Below, one piece after another: positions 3,036-25,976 of a stretch of 25,976 nt of DNA (positions are counted from its first letter, which is position 1; every line of letters starts with the position of its first letter). The stretch is from a virus (lineage: Duplodnaviria; Heunggongvirae; Uroviricota; Caudoviricetes), in the IMG/VR virus record IMGVR_UViG_2529293141_000017, positions 1-25,976 of that record; one strand, 5' to 3'. The position numbers were made by a program, and so were the translations under genes. The notes below the pieces were generated by a model. That model was not told the origin of the DNA. It saw only the letters and a program-made list of their open reading frames with translations, and made no database searches.

Positions 3036-3304
3036 TGCATATCAGAAATTTTTCGTATTACACCCCGGCGGAGCCGGATGTTGCAGGCGCGATGTACCTG
3101 AAGTCTGAGGATGGTCAGGACTGGTATGAGTGTCAGGCGTTGTTTTCGCCGGAGACGCTGAAGGTGGTGTATGACAGCCGGGGTGTGATTACGGGATACG
3201 GTAAGGACACTGCGTTACTGTGGCCGGTGAACCAGAGTGTGGCAGAAGTGCCGGATACCCCGGAGAACAGGAAAATTGACCTGAGCGGGCGCTGGGGGTT
3301 TTGA
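3032..3304 (+). CDS. tfa: Tail fibre assembly protein (Mu U / P2 G-like), N-terminal part; frame broken at a T4 run
   Basis: SEDGQDWYE...ETLKVVYD...VAEVPD...DLSGRWGF parallels P2 G / Mu U up to the W-x-F motif and then stops. The continuation DGEKI... lies in the -1 frame (see findings). Confidence 0.55.
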   Translation: MMHIRNFSYYTPAEPDVAGAMYLKSEDGQDWYECQALFSPETLKVVYDSRGVITGYGKDTALLWPVNQSVAEVPDTPENRKIDLSGRWGF

Positions 3305-7872: not shown

Positions 7873-8994
7873 TTACCCTTCGAAGAACCAATACCCGCTA
7901 TTGACCAGCGCCGCGAGCATCGCGAGGAATGACGGATCTTCCAGCGCATCGCCAAAATTCTCCGCAGTCAGCGCAATGTTGCTGGCGAGTGCATCCAGTG
8001 CCGGACGGTGCGGGGAATCGATCTTCTCACCATTGGCATACACGTCGTCGCCAATGCGCAATACGCGCAGACCACCCAGGCGCACCAGCACTTCACCTTG
8101 TTTCAGCGCATCGTAGATTTCATCCGGCTGATAAGGCGGCTCTGGCGGCGCGATATCCAGTTCATGACGTGACTGGGATATAAACTCGCCAAACCATTGC
8201 TTAAAGTGTTCCGGCTGGTTGATCAATTCGAGCATCATCTCACGCAGTTTATCCATCTCTTGCGGCAGAACATCCGCAGGATGAGCGCGAGGTGGAACAT
8301 CCGGATCGCTGTAGTAGTTGCCGCCCAGTTCACGTTGCAGCACATAATCGGCAAATCCACTAATCAGTTCCCGCGTATTTGGCGCGCGAAAGCCCACGGA
8401 ATAGTTCATCGCATTTTCCAGCGCGTAGCCTTCATGCGGGAATCCTGGCGGAATATAAAGAATATCACCAGGCTCCAGCTCTTCATCGATGATGGCTTCG
8501 AACGGATCGACCTGTAACAGATCCGGATGTGGGCAGTGCTGTTTCATTTGCAGCTTTTCGCCCACTCGCCAGCGACGACGTCCGGTACCCTGAATGATAA
8601 ACACGTCGTACTGATCGAGATGCGGACCGACGCCGCCGCCGGGTACAGAAAAAGAAATCATCAGATCATCAATACGCCAGTCCGGTAGTTCACGGAACGG
8701 TCGCATCAGCGCGGCGGTCGGCTCATGCCAGTGGTTCACTGCCTGTACCAGTAATGACCAGTTGGTTTCACCGAGATGATCGTAGCTTTCGAACGGGCCG
8801 TGGCTGACCTGCCATTTGCCATCCTGGTGACTGACCAGTCGACTGTCAACTTCGCTTTCCATCGCCAGACCCGCCAACTCGTCTGGAGAGATCGGGTCAA
8901 TAAAATTATTAAAGCCGCGTTTTAACACCACCGGGCGTTTCTGCCAGTGACGTTCAAGAAAATCGGGCCAGTTAAGAGTGAGTTGGTATTCCAT
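7873..8994 (-). CDS. roxA: Ribosomal protein uL16 arginine hydroxylase (YcfD/RoxA, JmjC/cupin family)
   Basis: 373 aa from MEYQLTLNWPDFLERHWQKRP, in conserved synteny with pepT. Confidence 0.9.
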   Translation of the reverse strand: MEYQLTLNWPDFLERHWQKRPVVLKRGFNNFIDPISPDELAGLAMESEVDSRLVSHQDGKWQVSHGPFESYDHLGETNWSLLVQAVNHWHEPTAALMRPFRELPDWRIDDLMISFSVPGGGVGPHLDQYDVFIIQGTGRRRWRVGEKLQMKQHCPHPDLLQVDPFEAIIDEELEPGDILYIPPGFPHEGYALENAMNYSVGFRAPNTRELISGFADYVLQRELGGNYYSDPDVPPRAHPADVLPQEMDKLREMMLELINQPEHFKQWFGEFISQSRHELDIAPPEPPYQPDEIYDALKQGEVLVRLGGLRVLRIGDDVYANGEKIDSPHRPALDALASNIALTAENFGDALEDPSFLAMLAALVNSGYWFFEG

Positions 8995-9195
8995 GTTAAG
9001 CATCCACAGGCTGGTATCTGCAACCGATTATAACGGATGCTTAACGTAATGCGTGAAGTATGGACATATTTTATCAATTAGTGTTTTTTGCCGTTTCATA
9101 ATGTTTCAGGTTGTGCATTATGTTTTTGATTATAAACAGATTTGTGATTTTTCTTGTTCCAGCTTGTTTCACGTTGTAGCCCTTTGTGCAACGAT

Positions 9196-9221
9196 CGGTG
9201 TAGTTAATGGTGTAGTTAATT
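9196..9221. repeat. Candidate attL core (CGGTGTAGTTAATGGTGTAGTTAATT)
   Basis: Direct repeat of 24410-24435; lies immediately 5' of the int start. Confidence 0.55.
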
Positions 9222-9242
9222 GTGATGACCGGATTCAAAATT

Positions 9243-10472
9243 ATGAGCAGAGCACTTAACAAACTGAGCGATACACAGCTGAGGAAAATCAACGGCACAC
9301 CCGCCCAAAAAACAGCCTTTCTTAATGACGGTGGAAACCTGAGCGTCAGGCATTCAACCAGTGGCCTTTTAACCTGGTATTTCACTTACAGGGCCGGAAC
9401 GGGAAGGGGGGCACCACCGGAACGCATTAAGCTGGGAAATTATCCTGATCTGAGCCTGAAATCAGCCAGGGAAAAAGCCGCCCAGTGTCGCGCATGGCTG
9501 GCAGAGGGGAAAAATCCACGTCATGAAATGAATTACACCGTACAGGAAGCGTTAAAGCCGGTAACGGTTGGCGATGCGCTCACCTACTGGCTTGAGTCGT
9601 ACGCAAAGGAAAACCGTGTGGATTATGACCCACTGAAAAAGCGGCTAAATAATCACGTAATACAGCACATTGGCCCTATGCCGCTGGATAAATGCGAGCT
9701 ACGGCACTGGCTGACCTGTTTTGATCGGGTGGCAAAGAAAGCCCCTGTTTCCGCCGGGTTCCTGCTACAGACATGCAAGCAGGCGCTTAAGTTCTGCAGG
9801 AAGCGGCGCTATGCAATCAGCAACGTTCTTGATGATATGAGTGTGGCGGACGTTGGGAAAAAACCGGATATAAGTGAGCGTGTCTTAAGTAACAAAGAAC
9901 TTGGCGAATTATTGCAGGCACTGGACAAAAAAATATTTTCCCCTTACTACGTCGCACTAATCCGCCTCCTGATTGTTTTCGGATGCCGGACAGTAGAACT
10001 GAGGTTATCGGAGATCGGCGAGTGGGATTTTACCGAAATGCTCTGGACCGTTCCGAAGGAGCACAGCAAAACGAAGGTAGCCATATTCCGGCCCATACCG
10101 GAAGCGATACTGCCGTTCGTCACGCAGCTGGTGGAGCAGAACAGGCACACGGGCTTATTGCTGGGGGAAGTGAAACAGGAAACCAGCGTATCGCAGTACG
10201 GCAGATTGGTGCACAGGAGGCTTAAACACCCTCACTGGTCACTGCATGACATCCGGCGCACCTTTACAACCATGCTGAACGATTTAGGCGTTGATCCTCA
10301 CGTCGTGGAGCAGCTTACAGGCCACCAGATGCCAGGAATGCAACGCGTGTACAACCATTCCCGCTATATTGATGCGAAACGCAATGCGCTTGATATGTGG
10401 GTGGAGCGGTTGGAGATACTGGCGGGAACACATGAAAACGTAACCACGCTACCAGTAACCAGAATAAAATAA
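9243..10472 (+). CDS. int: Tyrosine integrase (P4-type)
   Basis: N-terminal LSDTQLRKI...NDGGNLSV...WYFTYR arm-binding-like region, and a C-terminal catalytic region with HDIRRTF and a terminal RY...H. Alternative ATG at 9222. Confidence 0.88.
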   Translation: MSRALNKLSDTQLRKINGTPAQKTAFLNDGGNLSVRHSTSGLLTWYFTYRAGTGRGAPPERIKLGNYPDLSLKSAREKAAQCRAWLAEGKNPRHEMNYTVQEALKPVTVGDALTYWLESYAKENRVDYDPLKKRLNNHVIQHIGPMPLDKCELRHWLTCFDRVAKKAPVSAGFLLQTCKQALKFCRKRRYAISNVLDDMSVADVGKKPDISERVLSNKELGELLQALDKKIFSPYYVALIRLLIVFGCRTVELRLSEIGEWDFTEMLWTVPKEHSKTKVAIFRPIPEAILPFVTQLVEQNRHTGLLLGEVKQETSVSQYGRLVHRRLKHPHWSLHDIRRTFTTMLNDLGVDPHVVEQLTGHQMPGMQRVYNHSRYIDAKRNALDMWVERLEILAGTHENVTTLPVTRIK

Positions 10473-10846
10473 TTTTTTTCGTGTTTTTTCAGTATGCGCA
10501 TACTGGATAAGTGCACAGATACAACGTGAAACAATGTGCAATAACGTGACACAATCACGAACAAGAGGCCAAAAAGAATACAGATTTATAAGTTACTGAT
10601 TTTTAATGCTCAGCTGGTTTTTTATACATTAGTGAATTACGCGTTAAAGCGTGCGAAAAAAGGCATAAAACAAGATTTTATGCCTTTGTATTAACATGAA
10701 TTTAAATGATTTTATCCTGATTATTCCTCTTTCTGTAAACCATGCGACACCAACATTTGCCAACTCTGAATCATCCTGACACAATCAGACACATCCCAAC
10801 GCAATAGAACACGAAATAACTCTTTAAGAAACGAAAGGGGGCAATA

Positions 10847-11035
10847 GTGTTAAGCACTGATCGGTTTATACGTGAAAAAGAATGCGAAAAGCTAACAGGC
10901 CTTAGCCGCTCATGCCGCTACCGCCTGGAAAAGGCCGGACAATTCCCATCACGTCGTAAACTTGGCGGGCGTTCTGTTGGCTGGTCTTTATCTGAGGTTT
11001 TGGCCTGGAAGGATAGCTGCAAGGCAGTTCACTAA
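10847..11035 (+). CDS. alpA: AlpA-family (MerR/Xis-like) transcriptional regulator
   Basis: 62 aa with LTGLSRS..YRL...FP..RKLGGRSVGW, matching the AlpA pattern. GTG start with an AAGGGGG Shine-Dalgarno. Confidence 0.75.
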   Translation: MLSTDRFIREKECEKLTGLSRSCRYRLEKAGQFPSRRKLGGRSVGWSLSEVLAWKDSCKAVH

Positions 11036-11311: not shown

Positions 11312-11515
11312 TCAGGCTGGTGGGCAATTACCTTGCTTGTTGGGGCCGTATTGTGCTGCCATTTTCATCCGTTCAGAACGTGAATATTTTTTTAGAAACT
11401 CATCAAGGACAAAAGCGCATGGAGCGAATCTTTCTGATTCATGCTCGAGCGCCATATTTTCGTGCTCTCTGTTCGTTTTTTGCGATGGTGTATTGGTTGA
11501 TTCTTTATTGGTCAT
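11312..11515 (-). CDS. Hypothetical small protein (67 aa), second gene of repressor cassette A
   Basis: Paralogue of 12028-12255: shared MTN start and a conserved C-terminal F-x-L-D/E-x-F-x-K-Y-x-R motif. It is followed by a terminator. Confidence 0.45.
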   Translation of the reverse strand: MTNKESTNTPSQKTNREHENMALEHESERFAPCAFVLDEFLKKYSRSERMKMAAQYGPNKQGNCPPA

Positions 11516-11572
11516 TGTGTGTACCTGTAAAGCAATGCGCCGTAGTACCTCACGCCACGGCGCTGATAGTAA

Positions 11573-11752
11573 TTATTCTGATTCTTTGGCCTTGCGGCGC
11601 TGGCGGCGTTTGATCTCGCCTTTTGCTGCCGTAACTAGAAATCCGGCGGTACTTTCGCCAGGTTCTTTAAGTTGCTCAATATCGGTCATTACCTCATGCG
11701 GGATTCTGACCGTTGTCATTTGTGATTTTGCGTTCTTTGCACCTGTTGCCAT
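11573..11752 (-). CDS. Ribbon-helix-helix DNA-binding protein (59 aa), candidate island repressor, copy A
   Basis: Own translation MATGAKNAKSQMTTVRIPHEVMTDIEQLKEPGESTAGFLVTAAKGEIKRRQRRKAKESE, with a beta-strand / helix / helix pattern. AGGAGA Shine-Dalgarno 7 nt upstream. Divergent from a plus-strand promoter and operators. Confidence 0.55.
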   Translation of the reverse strand: MATGAKNAKSQMTTVRIPHEVMTDIEQLKEPGESTAGFLVTAAKGEIKRRQRRKAKESE

Positions 11753-12027: not shown

Positions 12028-12255
12028 TCATCCTGGCGGTCGGTTTTTGCCGGATTTAAGCCGCCGTGGGTATTTATCGACAAAATCTTCAAGGGCAAAT
12101 TTTTCTGGTGGCACTAAGCGCGGCGCTGGTGGTGGTATTTTTGTTCTGGTTAGTTCTTCCTCAACTCTGGCGCAGGCTTCTGACTGCCTTTGCCGGATGA
12201 TTTCATCATCTTGCGTTTGCGTGTCTTGTATTGGTGATAGTGTGTTGTTGGTCAT
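12028..12255 (-). CDS. Hypothetical small protein (75 aa), second gene of repressor cassette B
   Basis: Paralogue of 11312-11515, same position in the cassette. Confidence 0.5.
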   Translation of the reverse strand: MTNNTLSPIQDTQTQDDEIIRQRQSEACARVEEELTRTKIPPPAPRLVPPEKFALEDFVDKYPRRLKSGKNRPPG

Positions 12256-12312
12256 GATACTGCCCTGTAAAGCAATGCGCCGTAGTACCTCACACCACGG
12301 CGCTGATAGTGA

Positions 12313-12492
12313 TTATTCTGATTCTTTGGCCTTGCGACGCTGGCGGTATTCAACTTCCCGCTTTAATGCAGCTGTAACAAACTGCCCTGTACTTTCGCCG
12401 GGCATTTTTACCGCCTCAACATTGTTCATAACTTCATGTGGAACCCTTGCCGCAACTGTTTGTGATTTTGCGTTTACTGCTTTTGTCGCCAT
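12313..12492 (-). CDS. Ribbon-helix-helix DNA-binding protein (59 aa), candidate island repressor, copy B
   Basis: MATKAVNAKSQTVAARVPHEVMNNVEAVKMPGESTGQFVTAALKREV.... GAGGGG Shine-Dalgarno upstream. Divergent from the replication operon. Confidence 0.6.
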   Translation of the reverse strand: MATKAVNAKSQTVAARVPHEVMNNVEAVKMPGESTGQFVTAALKREVEYRQRRKAKESE

Positions 12493-12542
12493 GTTGAGCA
12501 CCCCTCATAAAAAACAAATGCAGTATGCAGGAAAAAAAACAA

Positions 12543-13778: not shown

Positions 13779-14078
13779 ATGAAACTTAAATATTCTGGCT
13801 TAACTGCCAGTGGCAACACTCACCCTAAATTTACGCGCGGTGATATTTACCGCGACCAGTACGGCGGTACGGTAATGATTAAGGGCGTGGCGGGACGGTG
13901 CGTAACTTACCGCCGTGAAGGTTACGAATATGATTGCGTGATGCCTGTTTATCAGTTCCGGCGTGATTTTTCTCTGGTACAGACCGCGCCGCATAACGTG
14001 CCCACCAGCAGGGAGAAAGCACGCGCCAATATTCAGAAGATGAAAAACATGATTAACGGATTCAGGGGCAAGAAATGA
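13779..14078 (+). CDS. Hypothetical protein (99 aa), translationally coupled to the helicase gene
   Basis: Stop overlaps the helicase ATG (ATGA). Confidence 0.55.
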   Translation: MKLKYSGLTASGNTHPKFTRGDIYRDQYGGTVMIKGVAGRCVTYRREGYEYDCVMPVYQFRRDFSLVQTAPHNVPTSREKARANIQKMKNMINGFRGKK

Positions 14079-15472
14079 AAAGCGCACCGAACTTAAAAAA
14101 ACAGCCTTACGACAAGATGACCGAAGTCATCATTTTTGCGGGTAGTGATGCGTGGGCACATGCGAAACAGTGGCAGGAACAGGACGGGCGACTGGCTGGC
14201 GATAATGTGCCTCCCATTGTGCTGGCTGATGATCAACTGGATGAACTGGCAGACCTGAGAATCATCGACGAGGGGCGCTATTGTGTCCGGCTGTACAAGG
14301 CAGGCCACATCAGGCCATCAAATATTAATGCCATTGCGCACAAGCTGGCGGCGGCGGGCGTAACTGATGCGAATTATTACCCCGAAGGGATACACAGCCA
14401 GAAGCGGGAGAACTGGCGCGAATATCTGGAACGGGAGCGGGGGAAAAAGCCAGGGGAAGAACACCACCAGCGAAAAACCACGCTACCGATGAGCGTTGGA
14501 TCTGCCGGATACGACACGCAATTAGATTACGTGGTAAAGGGGATTATTCCGGCATCGTCGCTTTGCAGCATATACGGGGCGAGCGGTTCCTATAAATCAT
14601 TCCTTGCGGGTTCGTGGGCGTGTCACGTTTCCACGGGCCGCCAGTGGGGAGGCCGCAGGGTGGCGCATGGCGCTGTTCTCTATGTGGTTGGTGAAGGCGG
14701 TATCGGCGTTCCGCGTCGTGTAAAAGCCTGGGAGGTTGTGCACGGTGAGCAGGTGAAAAATCTGTATCTGGTAAACCGTCCCATCTTTCCGGCGGTCCCG
14801 CTTGATGTTGATGAAATGGTTATCGCTGCCCGTCAGGTGGAGCGGGAAACGGGTAAACCTGTACGCATGATTATTCTGGATACGCTGGCGCGTTGCTTTG
14901 GTGGGAATGATGAAAATGATTCCCGTGATATGGGGGCGTTTATCCGTGGTTGTGACGAACTGAAACGACGCACAGGGGCCACGGTGCTGGTGGTTCACCA
15001 TTCCGGCAAGGATGAGACGAAAGGCGCGCGCGGTTCCAGTGCATTTCGTGCATCACTGGATGCTGAATACCGGATACGCAGGGAGGACGCAGGAAGCGAA
15101 GCGCTGGTTATCTCATGCACCAAAATGAAGGACGCGGAGGAACTCAAAGAAGCCGCATATGACTTACGCGTGGTGGAGCTGTTTACCGACGCTGACGGGG
15201 AGTTAATCACGTCGCTGGTGGTGGTGGATAAGCCGCGCCCTCCCGTTGAACTGGAGCGCATCGAGGAGGCAGGCAACAAGACGGAAAACCATACCGCACT
15301 ATGGGGGTGCATCCGTTCACGCACACAGAACGGCGACAAGTGCACGATCCCGCTGTTACGTGATGACATGAAACGGCTTGGGTATGACGTGAAAAATATG
15401 CGGCGATGGTTAGCCAAACTGGAAAAAGACGCCGTGATTTACATTGATGGTGATGATGTAGGACCACTGTAA
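14075..15472 (+). CDS. Replicative ATPase/helicase (RecA-fold, RepA/AAA_25-like) with an N-terminal domain of unknown role
   Basis: Walker A GASGSYKS, Walker B-like ILDTLARCFGG, and VVHHSGKD...GARGSSA motifs. Confidence 0.8.
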   Translation: MKSAPNLKKQPYDKMTEVIIFAGSDAWAHAKQWQEQDGRLAGDNVPPIVLADDQLDELADLRIIDEGRYCVRLYKAGHIRPSNINAIAHKLAAAGVTDANYYPEGIHSQKRENWREYLERERGKKPGEEHHQRKTTLPMSVGSAGYDTQLDYVVKGIIPASSLCSIYGASGSYKSFLAGSWACHVSTGRQWGGRRVAHGAVLYVVGEGGIGVPRRVKAWEVVHGEQVKNLYLVNRPIFPAVPLDVDEMVIAARQVERETGKPVRMIILDTLARCFGGNDENDSRDMGAFIRGCDELKRRTGATVLVVHHSGKDETKGARGSSAFRASLDAEYRIRREDAGSEALVISCTKMKDAEELKEAAYDLRVVELFTDADGELITSLVVVDKPRPPVELERIEEAGNKTENHTALWGCIRSRTQNGDKCTIPLLRDDMKRLGYDVKNMRRWLAKLEKDAVIYIDGDDVGPL

Positions 15473-15672
15473 AAAGTGAGTAGCAAAAGTGAGTAATGAT
15501 GAGGTTTTTACAAAATATTAACACGATTACTCACTTTCTCACCTGTATACATGCTCAAAAGTGAGGAGTAAAAAAATCATTATGAAACATACACATAAAG
15601 CATCAAAAAATATCAAGTGAGACGAAGCGAGACGCTTTAAAAAGTGAGGTGTAAAAGTGAGCATGAGTGAGG
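15473..15672. repeat. Iteron array (AAAGTGAG, at least 7 direct and 1-2 inverted copies) with an AT-rich spacer: candidate island replication origin
   Basis: Copies at 15473, 15486, 15530 (inverted), 15558, 15615, 15641 and 15654, immediately 3' of the helicase gene. Confidence 0.55.
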
Positions 15673-15926
15673 AGATAACCAAAATGCGCAGAGACAGAAC
15701 AGGGCCGAAATATAAAGCGTTAGACATGACAGAGCACGCCTTAAAGGTGGCAATCAGGGTAATAGACCGCCACGCGGGGGAAGGATACGCGAAAGCACAT
15801 CCCGAACTGATAAGCGCATTCATGACCACGACGGCGGCAAATTTTGCCACGCTGACAGAGCGGGAGATTGCCGAAGCGGAACAGGTAACAACCATCAACG
15901 TTAAAACCGGAGAGGTGGAATCATGA
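15663..15926 (+). CDS. Hypothetical protein (87 aa)
   Basis: ORF begins inside the last iterons; its stop overlaps the next ATG. Confidence 0.4.
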   Translation: MSEEITKMRRDRTGPKYKALDMTEHALKVAIRVIDRHAGEGYAKAHPELISAFMTTTAANFATLTEREIAEAEQVTTINVKTGEVES

Positions 15927-16237: not shown

Positions 16238-16648
16238 ATGACAGCACAAATTGCAGCTTACGGGCGGCTGGTGGACGACCCGCAGGTAAAACAGAGCAGC
16301 AAGGGCACACCGATGACTCTGGCGCGTATGGCGGTATCGTTGCCATGCAGCCAGGCACATGACGGACAGGCGACGTTATGGTTATCGGTTATCGCATTTG
16401 GCAAACAGGCCGATTTCCTGGCTAAACATCAAAAAGGCGATGTTGCCAGCGTATCCGGCACGATGCAGGTAAGCCAGTGGACCGGACAGAACGGGGAAAC
16501 GCGGCGGGGGTATCAGGTTATTGCAGACAGCGTAATCAGTGCCCGCGCGGCACGTCCAGGCGGGAACAGACGCAAAACCACAGGCACACAGGGTAATCAG
16601 CCACCAGCGGGAGGCGATGACCCTTACGGTGACGGTATTCCGTTCTGA
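16238..16648 (+). CDS. ssb: Single-stranded DNA-binding protein
   Basis: OB-fold-like N-terminal region, a Gly/Pro/Gln-rich linker, and an acidic C-terminal tip DDPYGDGIPF (compare DDDIPF of SSB). Confidence 0.8.
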   Translation: MTAQIAAYGRLVDDPQVKQSSKGTPMTLARMAVSLPCSQAHDGQATLWLSVIAFGKQADFLAKHQKGDVASVSGTMQVSQWTGQNGETRRGYQVIADSVISARAARPGGNRRKTTGTQGNQPPAGGDDPYGDGIPF

Positions 16649-16658
16649 GGGGGTGACG

Positions 16659-16907
16659 ATGGTACATGACCGCATAGCGGAGGAACTCGAGGCAAAAGGC
16701 TTTTACCGGAGGGCGTCGGCGCGATGGGGTGAAGTCATGCAACTGGTGGAGACAGACAAGGAACGGCATCAGGTTACGATGCGACGGCTGGAATGTTCCA
16801 GGAAGGCACAGAGGCCACCGGAGCCGCCAACGGAGAACTACGCAGACCTGAGAAATGCAGTAAATCGCACTTACGCAGACATGGGGCTGAGCAAATTAGC
16901 AGAGTAG
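16659..16907 (+). CDS. PerC-family-like transcriptional regulator (82 aa)
   Basis: MVHDRIAEELEAKGFYRRASARWGEVM resembles the PerC/Pch N-terminal motif; GAGGGGG Shine-Dalgarno. Confidence 0.5.
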   Translation: MVHDRIAEELEAKGFYRRASARWGEVMQLVETDKERHQVTMRRLECSRKAQRPPEPPTENYADLRNAVNRTYADMGLSKLAE

Positions 16908-17173
16908 GAATATCAGAACCACACCATACAGCCGGAGCAATCCGGCTTTTTGTTATTTTTTGTAAATTATTTGTTCGTGGTTGTTCCACGTTGTTCACTG
17001 AGCGGATCGGCATATTTTACCCGAACTGAATCATGATTATTCTCGCCCGTGGTGCCAGGACGCTGGGGCCACTTTCCCGCCTGTTAATGTGCTCGCCAAT
17101 ATTCATTACCAGGCGGGAAAACGATCGGTGCGATTGCTGATTTCCTTATGAAAAACGGTTGAGTGTTTGCCGC

Positions 17174-17211
17174 GTCCTGGAGTTCCTTACTTAACCCCAG
17201 GACTTTTTTTT
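17174..17211 (+). terminator. Terminator-like hairpin plus T8 ending 1 nt before the major capsid ATG
   Basis: GTCCTGG ... CCAGGAC stem followed by TTTTTTTT and then ATG 17212. Confidence 0.45.
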
Positions 17212-18369
17212 ATGCCGAGAATAATCGAATTACGCCAGCAGAAAACCGCCATTAAAAATCAGATGCGCGACATGCTGGAGAACGCTGAAAAAGAAAACCG
17301 CAGTCTTAACGATGCTGAGGGCGCAAAATTTGACGAATTACGCGCTAAAGCTGAATCCCTCGATAAAGACATTTCCCGCCTTGAAGCCATTGCAGACGAA
17401 GAGCGCAGCAAGCCAGGTAAAAGCAGTCAGACCACTGACCCCGCAGAACTACGAAACTACATTCTGACGGGTGAAACCCGCGCATTAAGTACAGGCGTTC
17501 CCGCTGATGGTGGTTATACCGTTATCCCCGAACTGAACACCGAAATCATGCGAATGCTGACGGATGAATCCACCATGCGCCGCATCTGTACCGTGAAGAA
17601 AATCAGCAGCAACGAGTTTAAGCAGCTTGTTTCCGCTGGCGGTGCGACCGTTAACCACGGTGAAGAGGGTAAGGCACGCGAACAGACCAGCACCCCGCAG
17701 ATTAACGAGGTGAGCATTAAGCTGTATCCGGTCTATGCGTACCCGCGCACCACACAGGAAATCGTGGATTTTTCCGATGTGGACATCCTTTCATGGCTGA
17801 CGGGTGAGATTGGCGACACCTTCACGGAAACCGAAGAAAGCGATCTGGTTGTGGGCGACGGTGACAAAAAAGCAAAAGGTTTTTTATCCGTACCCCGTGC
17901 AGAGAAGAACGACAAAGAGCGTGATTTTGGTACGTTGCAGGTAATTAAACCTTCCGAATCTCTGGCGTGGACATCTGCGGACCCGTTGATCGACCTGAAA
18001 TTTGCATTACGTAAAAAATACCGCAAAAACGCGGTCTGGGTGGTTAACTCCACGACGGCGGCAAAACTTCAGAAGGTGAAGAACGCGAACGGTGATTACA
18101 TCTGGCGCGACCGTTTACAGGCGGGTGATCCTGATACGTTGCTGGGCCTTCCGGTCGAATATCTGGAGTTTATGCCTGATAACGTTATTGCCCTGGGTGA
18201 CTTCAAACGCGGTTACTACATTGTTGATCACGAAACAGGTGTTCGCACCAGACCGGACAACCTCACAGAGCCGGGCTTCATCAAAATTTTCACGCAGAAA
18301 TATTTAGGCGGTGGCGTGGTGGATTCGAACGCGATCAAGATTCTGGAACTGCCACAGGACGACGATTAA
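17212..18369 (+). CDS. Major capsid protein (HK97 fold)
   Basis: Coiled-coil delta-domain-like N-terminus, ~385 aa, followed by a prohead protease gene. The TTG at 17167 is rejected because it would read through the hairpin. Confidence 0.88.
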   Translation: MPRIIELRQQKTAIKNQMRDMLENAEKENRSLNDAEGAKFDELRAKAESLDKDISRLEAIADEERSKPGKSSQTTDPAELRNYILTGETRALSTGVPADGGYTVIPELNTEIMRMLTDESTMRRICTVKKISSNEFKQLVSAGGATVNHGEEGKAREQTSTPQINEVSIKLYPVYAYPRTTQEIVDFSDVDILSWLTGEIGDTFTETEESDLVVGDGDKKAKGFLSVPRAEKNDKERDFGTLQVIKPSESLAWTSADPLIDLKFALRKKYRKNAVWVVNSTTAAKLQKVKNANGDYIWRDRLQAGDPDTLLGLPVEYLEFMPDNVIALGDFKRGYYIVDHETGVRTRPDNLTEPGFIKIFTQKYLGGGVVDSNAIKILELPQDDD

Positions 18370-18423
18370 CAGCATACAGAAGGGGCTTAAAAGCCCCTTT
18401 AGTGTTTTATGGGTGAAAAAATT

Positions 18424-23963: not shown

Positions 23964-23998
23964 GTGACGGAGAGTGACAACCAGTGACACACCGTGAC
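23964..23998. repeat. Four GTGAC motifs phased at exactly 10 bp: candidate protein-binding array
   Basis: GTGAC at 23964, 23974, 23984 and 23994. Confidence 0.5.
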
Positions 23999-24233: not shown

Positions 24234-24409
24234 AACCCACCAGCCTGATTAAATGTTAACCGGAAAAAAAATCCGGTAGCCCCGTTATGGGGATCCCCAT
24301 ATCGACATTAACGCCCCTCATGAATTGGTGCGCTTCCCCCTGGAAAGATTACCCGCCTGTATATTTCTTGTGTCTATTTGTTCCACGTTGTTTCATACAG
24401 TGCACCGAA

Positions 24410-24435
24410 CGGTGTAGTTAATGGTGTAGTCAATT
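24410..24435. repeat. Candidate attR core (CGGTGTAGTTAATGGTGTAGTCAATT)
   Basis: 25/26 identical to 9196-9221, in direct orientation. Confidence 0.55.
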
Positions 24436-24515
24436 TGCGATTTTTGGCACTTTTTCAATGATAATTGTTTAATTAAATCAATGACTTGACCTGGTGTGGT
24501 GATAAAAGGACATAT

Positions 24516-25976
24516 TTATTCATCTTTCGGCGCAGAATGCTGGCGACCAAAAATCACCTCCATCCGCGCACCGCCCAGCATGCTCTCTCCGGCGACGATT
24601 TTACCCTCATATTGCTCGGTGATTTCGCGGGCTACCGCCAGCCCTACACCTTGCCCAGGGCGTAAAGTATCAACCCGTTGACCACGGTCGAAAATGACCT
24701 CTCGCTTGCTTAATGGAATACCGGGGCCATCATCCTCGACCACAATATAGAGATGCTCGTCGGTTTGCCTTGCAGAAATTTCGACAAACTCGAGGCAATA
24801 TTTACAGGCATTATCCAGCACGTTGCCCATCACCTCGACAAAATCGTTCTGCTCACCGACAAAGCTGATCTCTGGCGAAATATCGAGAGAGATATTGACC
24901 CCTTTGCGTTGATACACTTTGTTCAGCGCTGAGGTGAGATTGTCCAGCAGTGGGGCGACCGGATGCAGCTCGCGGCTGAGCAATGTCCCGCCGCGCATAC
25001 TGGCACGATGCAGGTAGTAGCCAATTTGCTGTGAAATGCGGCTGATTTGCTCCAGCATTACCGGCTCAGCATCACTGACGCTCATCTTTTCACTACGCAG
25101 AGAACGCAGCGTACTTTGCAGCACCGCCAGTGGCGTTTTCAGACTATGGGTCAGGTCGGTGAGCGTCGTACGGTATTTGTCGTAACGTTCGCGTTCACTT
25201 TTTAACAATCGGTTCAGGTTTCGTACCAGACTGGTCAGTTCTCGCGTTGTGGCTGGATTGAGCAATTCGCGGTTATGTTCTTCCAGTTCGCGGACTTCTT
25301 TTGCCAGGGCTTCGATGGGGCGTAAACTCCACCAGGCGGCGACCCACAGCAGCGGGATCACTAACAGCAGATTGGCTGAGAGCACATAGATAAACCAGCT
25401 CCAGACCATATAGGAACTTTTTAGCTCCACCGGAATGGTATCCACCACCACAATGGTTAATTTTGGCATCCGCGATGTTGCCGGGTAGACGTTTACTGCC
25501 ACCGAGTGGGTCATCTCCGCGTCGTCATCATCTTCCCGCACTTCCTGCAACTGTTGCTGTATCGAATGATCTCCACTCAGCAAGAGGCTGGTATCGTTAA
25601 CATCCGCTTCAATTTCATGAAAACCATTCGATTTCAGCCAGTCAGGCTGGATCATCTTCATCAGCCAGGGCACGTCACGTTGCGCCCATAAAAGCTGCCC
25701 GTTCTCATCATAAATTAGCGTCATGGTGGGGCTTTGCTTGTCGATATTTTCGGGTAACTCGACATGCAACTTATTGTTTTCCCACTTCGCAAGGGTATAG
25801 AACAGATTGCTCTCGCCACGTAACAGCCGAAACGTAGTTTTATCGAAACTGACGCTATAACCGATCAGCGCGACCATTCCGTAGGCAAGCGAAAGCACCA
25901 GTACTACCGCTGCCGTTGCCAACAGAAAACGTACCCGCAGCGAGAGCGGGAAAAAAAGACGCAGTAATTTTTTCAT
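24516..25976 (-). CDS. phoQ: Sensor histidine kinase PhoQ
   Basis: 486 aa starting [25 protein letters not shown]..., with a periplasmic sensor region, HAMP and a HisKA/ATPase core; the start lies at the window edge. Confidence 0.96.

Follow-up and report, generated by a model that had tools for sequence, protein, structure and literature searches.

A conserved structured leader RNA before the capsid gene of an E. coli capsid-forming island and its possible role as a cis-acting attenuator

Introduction

The 25,976-nucleotide stretch of DNA analysed here (IMG/VR record IMGVR_UViG_2529293141_000017, positions 1 to 25,976; hereafter the window) contains a capsid-forming phage-inducible chromosomal island (cf-PICI) from E. 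coli, integrated and of the EcCIEDL933 type. Such islands spread between species through released tail-less capsids that later capture phage tails, and a conserved, switchable leader is an obvious candidate for control of the packaging operon. This operon is opened by the gene of an HK97-type major capsid protein and continues with the genes for the prohead protease, portal, head completion protein, connector, HNH, TerS and TerL. Between perC, the final gene of the upstream operon, and the capsid gene lie an intrinsic terminator, an array of phased repeats, a predicted promoter, three hairpins and a T-run that touches the capsid ATG (Table 1). The hairpins and the T-run are most probably the 3' end of a conserved, structured 5' leader of ~162 nt that belongs to the packaging operon. 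We place the probability at roughly 55% that this leader is a bistable cis-acting RNA, in which a built-in antiterminator sets the level of read-through before the capsid gene.

Structure of the leader and of the capsid start region

The segment 17049-17214 (166 nt) folds with a free energy of -65.3 kcal/mol, compared with -44.6 +/- 3.6 kcal/mol for shuffled sequences (z = -5.75; 0 of 200 shuffles as good). The minus strand of the leader gives a weaker signal (z = -3.9). Hairpin 1 at the 5' end, which was overlooked by an earlier reading of the locus made from the letters alone (the sequence-only reading), consists of an outer stem and an inner stem capped by the loop GACG. Across 42 distinct sequences, 94% of its cells are paired, three inner pairs are changed on both sides, and G-U variants occur in the outer stem. 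Hairpin 2 is a long helix. The sequence-only reading had recognised a large hairpin here; such a hairpin exists, but the segments 17065-17074 and 17101-17110 taken as its arms do not pair. Hairpin 2 differs in sequence and architecture among relatives, being either another long hairpin or a three-way junction bearing two pentaloop hairpins, and the sub-hairpin 2b covaries through four pair combinations (CUGC/GCAG, CGGA/UCCG, CUGA/UCAG and CGGU/ACCG). The linker downstream of hairpin 2, with a nucleotide diversity of 0.067 the most variable part of the leader, contains two small predicted hairpins and an A-rich run (17151-17155) predicted to be able to pair with the U-tract.

RNAalifold produced only a partial consensus from the MAFFT alignment of the leader because hairpin 2 misaligns. 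Searches of Rfam 15 at gathering and permissive thresholds gave no usable match for 17049-17214. Hairpin 2 gave the sole sub-threshold match, a chance hit of 16.8 bits to a miRNA model whose gathering score is 245, and an Rfam search of a type-B leader returned chance-level matches only. The leader RNA most probably belongs to a family not yet catalogued. A leader peptide was rejected: the 35-codon open reading frame (ORF) at 17033-17140 lies partly upstream of the predicted transcription start, lacks a bias at third positions and carries frameshifts in some alleles, and other leader types have no ATG at its position. An 11-nt perfect complement between 17035-17045 and codons 2-5 of the capsid gene was set aside as well; it lies upstream of the predicted start, and its natural variants are uncompensated.

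Hairpin 3 has the form of an intrinsic terminator. Its stem extends by three further pairs past an A/C mismatch and closes an 8-nt loop. The T8 tract follows the stem directly (0 nt), and the capsid ATG follows the tract. The hairpin and its T8 tract had been noticed in the sequence-only reading, which left 1 nt before the ATG where the actual gap is 0 nt. Within the 49 distinct E. coli-type sequences that underlie the variation described here, T7 or T8 is present in 49 of 49 (T7 in 38, T8 being the minor allele) and the 5' arm of the terminator is invariant. Among the common variants of the 3' arm, 17197 C>U retains a pair as G-U and 17196 C>U creates a new A-U pair; stem-breaking variants are singletons. 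In a diverged lineage (L061/L079), the loop differs and the stem is lengthened to GUCCUGGUG/CAUCAGGAC.

The best duplex with the anti-Shine-Dalgarno sequence within 25 nt upstream of the capsid gene reaches only -4.0 kcal/mol and is formed by AGGA, 9 nt before the AUG; the corresponding duplexes of perC, alpA, portal and HNH have -9.7 to -12.5 kcal/mol. The suggestion that no ribosome-binding site is recognisable therefore holds for a canonical Shine-Dalgarno (SD) sequence, but the weak AGGA had been missed. Translation starting without a good SD sequence, also proposed in that reading, agrees with this value, and the SD is weak or absent in almost all leaders collected for the capsid family. 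No alternative start codon with a normal ribosome-binding site was found. An in-frame TTG at 17167 is not the start codon because of the T7/T8 indel.

In one metagenomic cf-PICI (L109, about 900-1200), the leader is unrelated and the capsid gene starts with TTG behind a canonical AGGAG, so that the SD-less arrangement is not obligatory in the capsid family. Several database capsid homologues (P0013, P0021, P0025 and other Salmonella entries; L085, 8953) have 403 aa with an N-terminal extension of ~19 residues, probably a gene-calling artefact due to the missing SD.

Table 1 Features at the capsid leader and island genes referred to in the text (positions of the window)
Feature	Position	Strand	Basis or remark
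int	9222-10472		
alpA, 62 aa, the island's activator	10847-11035	+	Pfam PF05930, E = 5e-18
RepA-family helicase gene	14075-15472		
SSB gene	16238-16648		
perC, PerC-family regulator	16659-16907	+	Pfam PF06069, E = 1e-35; RefSeq start agrees
Intrinsic terminator after perC	16930-16955	+	Terminator scan: 7-bp stem, 5 GC pairs, T-rich tail
Phased repeat array	16959-16996	.	TTGTAA 16959-16964; TTGTTC 16971-16976, 16981-16986, 16991-16996; 10-bp spacing
Predicted -35 hexamer TTTACC	17016-17021	+	Geometry homology with relatives
Predicted -10 hexamer TATTCT	17038-17043	+	Invariant in 49 distinct E. coli-type sequences
Hairpin 1	17049-17072	+	Outer stem 17049-17052/17069-17072; inner stem CCAG 17055-17058/CUGG 17063-17066; loop GACG 17059-17062
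Antiterminator segment CCAGGACGC	17055-17063	+	Perfect 9-nt complement of 17172-17180
Hairpin 2	17073-17120	+	Arms 17073-17089/17104-17120, 17 nt each, 94% complementary
Linker with two small predicted hairpins	17123-17172	+	Hairpins 17123-17142 and 17156-17172; minimum-free-energy fold
Partner segment GCGUCCUGG, contains the terminator 5' arm and CGUC	17172-17180	+	Invariant in 49 distinct E. coli-type sequences
Terminator hairpin (hairpin 3)	17174-17203	+	dG -14.1 kcal/mol; stem GTCCTGG 17174-17180/CCAGGAC 17197-17203
AGGA, sole SD-like element, in the terminator 3' arm	17199-17202	+	Presumed SD function
T8 tract, U-tract of the terminator and U-rich stretch before the start codon	17204-17211	+	
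HK97-type major capsid gene	17212-18369	+	Pfam PF05065, E = 1.8e-61; RefSeq start
Second terminator-like hairpin, between capsid and protease genes	18379-18400	+	Terminator scan, 9-bp stem

Long-range pairing between hairpin 1 and the terminator

Hairpin 1 is complementary to the terminator. The heptamer CCAGGAC is present twice in the leader, in hairpin 1 and as the 3' arm of the terminator, and the segment CCAGGACGC, made up of the 5' arm of hairpin 1, its loop and one further base, can pair with GCGUCCUGG. The resulting duplex has -17.1 kcal/mol, compared with -11.3 kcal/mol for the terminator stem. A complement of at least 9 nt to the arm region occurred in 11 of 5000 shuffles of the upstream leader, a shuffle control that is not to be read as a probability.

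The core of this contact is conserved, and its flanks covary. In a gap-free alignment of the 42 distinct sequences, the helix between loop GACG and strand CGUC is 96% paired, as against 27-67% when the strands are slid, and CGUC is invariant in 42 of 42 sequences from all leader types. The flanking pair 17-36 is U-A in 31 sequences, C-G in 7 and G-C in 4. The only single-side changes inside GACG:CGUC are the loops GGCG (G-U) and GAUG (U-G), both wobble-compatible. The partner strings differ between leader types and remain complementary (5'->3'): CCAG-GACG-C with G-CGUC-CUGG in type A, A-GACG-UGA with UCA-CGUC-U in the common type, GACG-GGA with UCC-CGUC in another, and GACG-CGG with CCG-CGUC in a Salmonella type. 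Relatives from Citrobacter, Salmonella, Morganella, Proteus and Erwinia show this covariation of the contact and its flanks.

The stability of the two alternative folds changes as the transcript grows. For transcripts ending at 17181-17190, the antiterminator fold is the minimum by ~1.2 kcal/mol (at 17181, -52.1 versus -50.9 kcal/mol), whereas for those ending at 17203-17211 hairpin 1 together with the terminator is favoured by 9-10 kcal/mol (thermodynamics only). Because the folds are nearly equal before the 3' arm is made, the choice between them would be kinetic and finely balanced, which predicts partial termination that slight perturbations could raise or lower.

Leader types among relatives and selection on the leader

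Regions upstream of capsid homologues were gathered from genomes, IMG/VR, metagenomes and assemblies. Type A, the E. coli type, was found at ~60 loci, including the diverged lineage at 69% capsid identity, and always has the hairpin followed by T7/T8 and the ATG. A second group of leader types occurs in Citrobacter, Salmonella, Morganella, Proteus, Erwinia, Rosenbergiella, other E. coli islands and many metagenomic contigs. It shares hairpin 1 (outer stem, 4-bp inner stem, loop GACG) followed by a long, very variable second element, which either forms a simple long hairpin or branches into a three-way junction that bears two pentaloop hairpins and is followed by GAAAAAG. Its third hairpin ends 3-4 nt before the AUG and has no U-tract. 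The type A leader is absent from 50,697 phage records, and the other leader type is present in only three of them; the best of the three is an induced "phage" of 16.5 kb, a size typical of a cf-PICI.

In the U-tract-less types, the CGU of CGUC is paired with ACG inside hairpin 3. From this geometry, the long-range contact would open the hairpin next to the AUG by competing with its upper stem. The contact probably controls access to the start region in all types, with transcription termination added in the E. coli lineage. One long-range RNA contact could thus govern transcription in one lineage and translation in others.

This raises the question of whether the leader acts mainly in translation also in E. 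coli, with the hairpin masking the weak SD and the start region, the U-tract serving as a landing site of ribosomal protein S1, the long-range helix gating the ribosome, and termination being negligible. Such a function is conceivable, although we regard it as improbable. Capsid genes of the family have no good SD even behind leaders without a terminator, the CGUC strand of other types pairs in a hairpin 3-4 nt before the AUG that the contact could open, and AGGA stands inside the 3' arm. Established precedents are the rpsA leader, which has no SD, and U-rich leaders that act as enhancers through S1. However, a hairpin of -14 kcal/mol with 7-8 U immediately behind it is a standard intrinsic terminator, the length of its U-tract is kept in 49 variants, and a translational role is compatible with termination and does not exclude it.

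The leader is under purifying selection. Its nucleotide diversity is 0.045 over the whole length, 0.021 in hairpin 1 and 0.034 in the terminator, with 0.084 at third codon positions of the capsid gene and 0.026 and 0.018 at its first and second positions. This pattern bears on two further explanations. The first takes the hairpins and the T-run as a chance arrangement that is functionless beyond spacing. The variation of the T-run between T7 and T8 and the few natural variants that break the stem (L019, L044) would fit it, but the z-score of -5.75, the purifying selection, the covariation across genera and the singleton status of the stem-breakers make it very unlikely. The second takes the terminated leader of ~160 nt as a trans-acting small RNA, whose terminator and U-tail form an Hfq-binding module, and capsid expression as a by-product of read-through. 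Short transcripts terminated before the late genes of Shiga-toxin phages offer a precedent for trans action. The leader is more conserved than synonymous sites, its 3' module is typical of small RNAs, and a ProQ/FinO-domain protein is encoded directly upstream in some related islands. Nevertheless, most relatives share the leader core without the terminator and therefore would make no discrete small RNA, no target is known, and the literature on CP-933C and small RNAs yielded nothing; we hold this explanation to be quite improbable.

A PerC homologue lies at most 1.2 kb upstream at 57 of 58 loci with a terminator-bearing leader and at 0 of 77 loci with U-tract-less types. This association is confounded by shared descent, since the SSB-perC block and the leader may be co-inherited, and it is treated as a lead only. 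In the E. coli cf-PICI group L073/L074 (8958-9488), a gene for a ProQ/FinO-domain RNA-binding protein stands directly before the capsid leader and replaces perC.

Promoter region and candidate trans-acting factors

Among islands with differing upstream modules, sequence conservation starts exactly at the terminator after perC, and a terminator of this kind is present in those examined islands whose upstream gene is co-directional. Insulation of the capsid operon from upstream transcription by this terminator is supported. No space for a promoter exists between the T-run and the ATG, and therefore transcripts of the capsid gene must read through the hairpin and T-run, as the sequence-only reading had concluded.

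The predicted promoter lies upstream of all hairpins. Its geometry is kept in 68 related sequences, with TTTAC(N) or TTTTCT as the -35 hexamer, a TAnnnT hexamer and ~5 nt to hairpin 1, and a 16-nt spacer in 64 of the 68. The -10 hexamers of relatives (TATCTT, TATGTT or TATATT) have the same position relative to hairpin 1 as TATTCT. The promoter is predicted to be of a weak sigma-70 type and to start transcription at about 17049-17051, that is, at hairpin 1. A generic promoter scan did not report it because only 8 of 12 consensus positions are matched. The spacer (17022-17037) is variable, and no conserved -10-like element follows the predicted start. An alternative assignment, with the third TTGTTC repeat as -35 and TATTTT (17013-17018) as -10, was superseded by the homology-supported TTTACC/16/TATTCT.

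The repeat motif upstream of the promoter has 13 matches across the window versus 2.9 expected. Paralogous arrays are located just upstream of int (9144-9178), at the right end of the island (24358-24392) and, inverted, between int and alpA (10520-10564), and an equivalent distribution is seen in two other E. coli islands. The TTGTTC arrays are probably binding sites of a regulator of the AlpA or recombination directionality factor type. In EcCICFT073, AlpA activates both the PICI cycle and its own promoter (PMC6092414), which fits AlpA as the binding protein. A search for arrays near the int and alpA genes of islands outside E. coli gave no matches at the chosen threshold except one in Erwinia, and the assignment of AlpA to the repeats is for this reason still an inference.

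The ~75-nt paralogous blocks at both ends of the island (9144-9221 and 24358-24435; inverted, 10520-10564) contain TTGTT(C) repeats and a tandem 12-mer, GGTGTAGTTAAT, in two copies. In other islands, the 12-mer varies with the integrase allele (GTGTGGTCAGTT, GGTGTAGTCACT, AGTGTGTATTGC) and is therefore probably an arm-type site of the integrase. A candidate att core, GGACATATTT, is found at 9062-9071 and 24508-24517.

Read-through may also depend on a protein, in that a Q/N-type factor of a helper phage, AlpA or PerC modifies the polymerase at the promoter and renders it processively resistant to the terminator; the sequence-only reading had named the helper phage and AlpA/PerC as triggers. 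The order of promoter, short leader, terminator and late genes resembles that of lambdoid late operons and of the Pseudomonas alpB locus, where AlpA is a processive antiterminator and the terminator immediately precedes the first gene (PMC7969949). Moreover, perC lies directly upstream and shows the distribution described above, the promoter-adjacent array recurs at other regulatory sites of the island, and EcCICFT073 likewise has perC, a promoter, a hairpin with T6 and late genes in this order.

However, several observations make this route unlikely. Tail-less cf-PICI capsids, those of EcCIEDL933 included, are produced without helper induction (10.1101/2025.02.11.637232), so that the published data do not support a dependence of the late genes on the helper phage and a trans-acting antiterminator is less likely. 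An alpA-overexpressing strain was used for the purification of EcCIEDL933 capsids (10.1101/2025.02.11.637232). The island AlpA is a small winged-helix protein, unlike the Pseudomonas AlpA, which is larger and has eight helices, contact residues up to H142 and a 21Q-like fold (PMC9371919). A PDB sequence search with the island AlpA returned only 8c3t ('AlpA family phage regulatory protein') and no chain of Pseudomonas AlpA. Protein size, fold and this search argue against homology between the two proteins, and the shared name is coincidental. The island encodes no Q-like or 21Q-fold protein. PerC/Pch proteins are reported to bind AT-rich DNA and to relieve H-NS silencing, a role at the promoter level (PMC4764244); by analogy, PerC, if relevant, would act on the AT-rich promoter region and not on the terminator, and its association with the leader carries the confounding noted above. 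Q- and AlpA-binding elements lie between -35 and -10, whereas the island's repeats are found further upstream, at about -54 to -90, before the -35 hexamer.

Proposed attenuation mechanism

The attenuation model for the capsid operon runs as follows. The weak promoter, downstream of the probable regulator-binding array, would start transcription at hairpin 1, and the leader would end in an intrinsic terminator that has its U-tract directly next to the capsid AUG and conceals the only SD-like sequence in its 3' arm. While the polymerase is between the two arms of the terminator, the fold with hairpin 1 closed and the fold with CCAGGACGC paired to GCGUCCUGG as an antiterminator would be nearly equal in energy. 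A fraction of the transcripts would then read through, leaving AGGA and the U-tract single-stranded and accessible to the ribosome. The remaining transcripts would terminate as an RNA of ~160 nt, in which AGGA is paired in the terminator fold. In this way, the leader would set, and could tune, the output of the capsid operon in cis. The production of capsids without a helper phage fits such a leaky, cis-set attenuator, and any factor that shifts the balance of the folds would be a presumed addition to this model.

Several points weigh against this model. Its start site, its ~160-nt product and the read-through itself are predicted. Hairpin 1 is formed first during transcription and could simply win, resulting in efficient termination. 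The terminator has an internal mismatch and was not listed by a simple terminator scan, presumably because its loop exceeds the 3-8 nt limit when the extension past the mismatch is not counted. Because relatives hold the contact without a U-tract, the ancestral role of the contact cannot be antitermination, and the islands of Xenorhabdus and Gilliamella as well as the variant L109 have no structured leader. The covariation comes from only about five lineages and so represents few independent events, and two inverted copies of a DNA operator could yield matching changes too. The wobble variants and the stronger folding of the plus strand argue for RNA rather than a DNA operator.

A more far-reaching proposal, which we put forward as tentative and rather doubtful, is that the leader represents a new class of structured cis-regulatory RNA specific to capsid-forming satellites, flipped between an OFF state (terminator or closed start) and an ON state by a signal of cellular or phage origin, such as a protein, for example unassembled capsid or portal protein, or a small molecule. 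Many leaders of relatives have ~150 nt, a 5' hairpin, a three-way junction with two conserved pentaloops and the long-range helix. If the proposal is true, a signal-sensing leader decides when, or in which cells, tail-less capsids are made.

Comparison with known systems

The organisation resembles that of the trp, pyrBI, T-box and riboswitch attenuators, in which the leader places an intrinsic terminator shortly before the first gene, the 5' arm of this terminator can pair with an upstream segment that a local hairpin (an anti-antiterminator) sequesters, and the outcome is decided kinetically during transcription. Unlike these systems, the capsid leader has no conserved leader peptide, no known ligand domain and no Rfam match; a sensor of either kind (leader peptide or Rfam aptamer) was not found in it. 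It further differs from classical attenuators in three respects: relatives without the terminator also have the contact, no nucleotide separates the U-tract from the start codon, and the terminator itself contains the SD-like element.

A promoter of its own, a short non-coding leader and a bypassable intrinsic terminator before the late operon are also features of the lambda PR'-6S RNA-tR' unit controlled by Q and of the Pseudomonas aeruginosa AlpA-tB unit. In the alp system, the terminator likewise immediately precedes the first gene (PMC7969949). In contrast to both, the island encodes no Q-like protein, its capsids are made without a helper, and an antiterminator helix is present in cis instead.

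The put RNA of phage HK022 consists of two adjacent 5' stem-loops upstream of a terminator and acts in cis, rendering the polymerase resistant to termination without a protein factor. The capsid leader likewise has two stem-loops at the start of the transcript, a likeness in general form that is not accompanied by a put match in the Rfam searches. Unlike put, which does not need it, the leader is directly complementary to a terminator arm, and its hairpin 2 is highly variable. With the rpsA leader and S1-dependent enhancers it shares a highly expressed gene without SD, structured hairpins and U/A-rich single strands; there is no sequence relationship, however, and in the capsid leader the U-tract doubles as the terminator tail.

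The classical PICI EcCICFT073 has a similar order of perC, terminator, promoter and a strong hairpin with a T-run before the first late gene. In contrast to the capsid leader, its first late gene has a good SD, and hairpin 1 and the long-range helix are absent. In EcCICFT073 (L166, E. coli CFT073, 3075-3145), a 14-bp hairpin with T6 encloses a near-consensus promoter (TTGCTC/16/TATAAT). Transcripts from this promoter would therefore lack the 5' part of the stem, and read-through transcripts would have the complete hairpin.

The literature on CP-933C and small RNAs and on EcCIEDL933 contained nothing that we could find on regulation of the packaging operon or on the leader. The leader would add an uncatalogued RNA motif found across Enterobacterales.

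The host island and minor observations

The identification of the island rests on a gene set, assigned by Pfam, of int, alpA, rep, capsid, protease, portal, connectors, HNH, TerS and TerL, without tail or lysis genes, and its layout is that published for EcCIEDL933 and cf-PICIs (10.1101/2022.09.08.507074). The RefSeq annotation of identical DNA gives the same gene assignments and the same capsid start codon, and the N-terminus of the capsid protein can be aligned with homologues from residue 1. At least 80% of a 1.2-kb query spanning the capsid-leader region is carried by 353 of 5426 complete E. coli genomes.

A GC-rich hairpin is located directly 3' of the capsid gene in eight of nine islands examined; the short spacer of the Xenorhabdus island L084 has none. 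In the window, this second terminator-like hairpin probably lowers expression of the downstream genes for protease and portal relative to the capsid gene. The alignment makes ATG 18424 the more likely start of the protease gene than the annotated position 18409. With GGGTG upstream of this ATG, the idea that the protease gene is a second SD-less gene behind a terminator was dropped.

Outside the island, the segment 970-1128 (+) scores 62.9 bits with the Rfam model of the sok antitoxin RNA (RF01794) and so exceeds its gathering score, which indicates a hok/sok-type toxin-antitoxin locus. A 125-nt direct repeat with 82% identity is found at 11505-11629 and 12245-12369. Each copy overlaps a small paralogous ORF on the minus strand (11573-11752 and 12313-12501; 59 and 62 aa). 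Both ORFs end in ...RQRRKAKESE and have no Pfam match, and related islands have a minus-strand DUF3950 ORF at the equivalent place after alpA. Directly 3' of the RepA-helicase gene, iteron-like AAAAGTGAG(G/T)AG repeats with ~84-nt spacing (15467-15683) are probably the replication origin of the island. Downstream of the packaging operon, GTGAC(A) occurs four times at a 10-bp phase (23964-23995). The Xenorhabdus cf-PICI L084 carries cargo in its primase-to-capsid interval (7910-9881), namely genes for Hcp of a type VI secretion system, DUF6402 and DUF6201.

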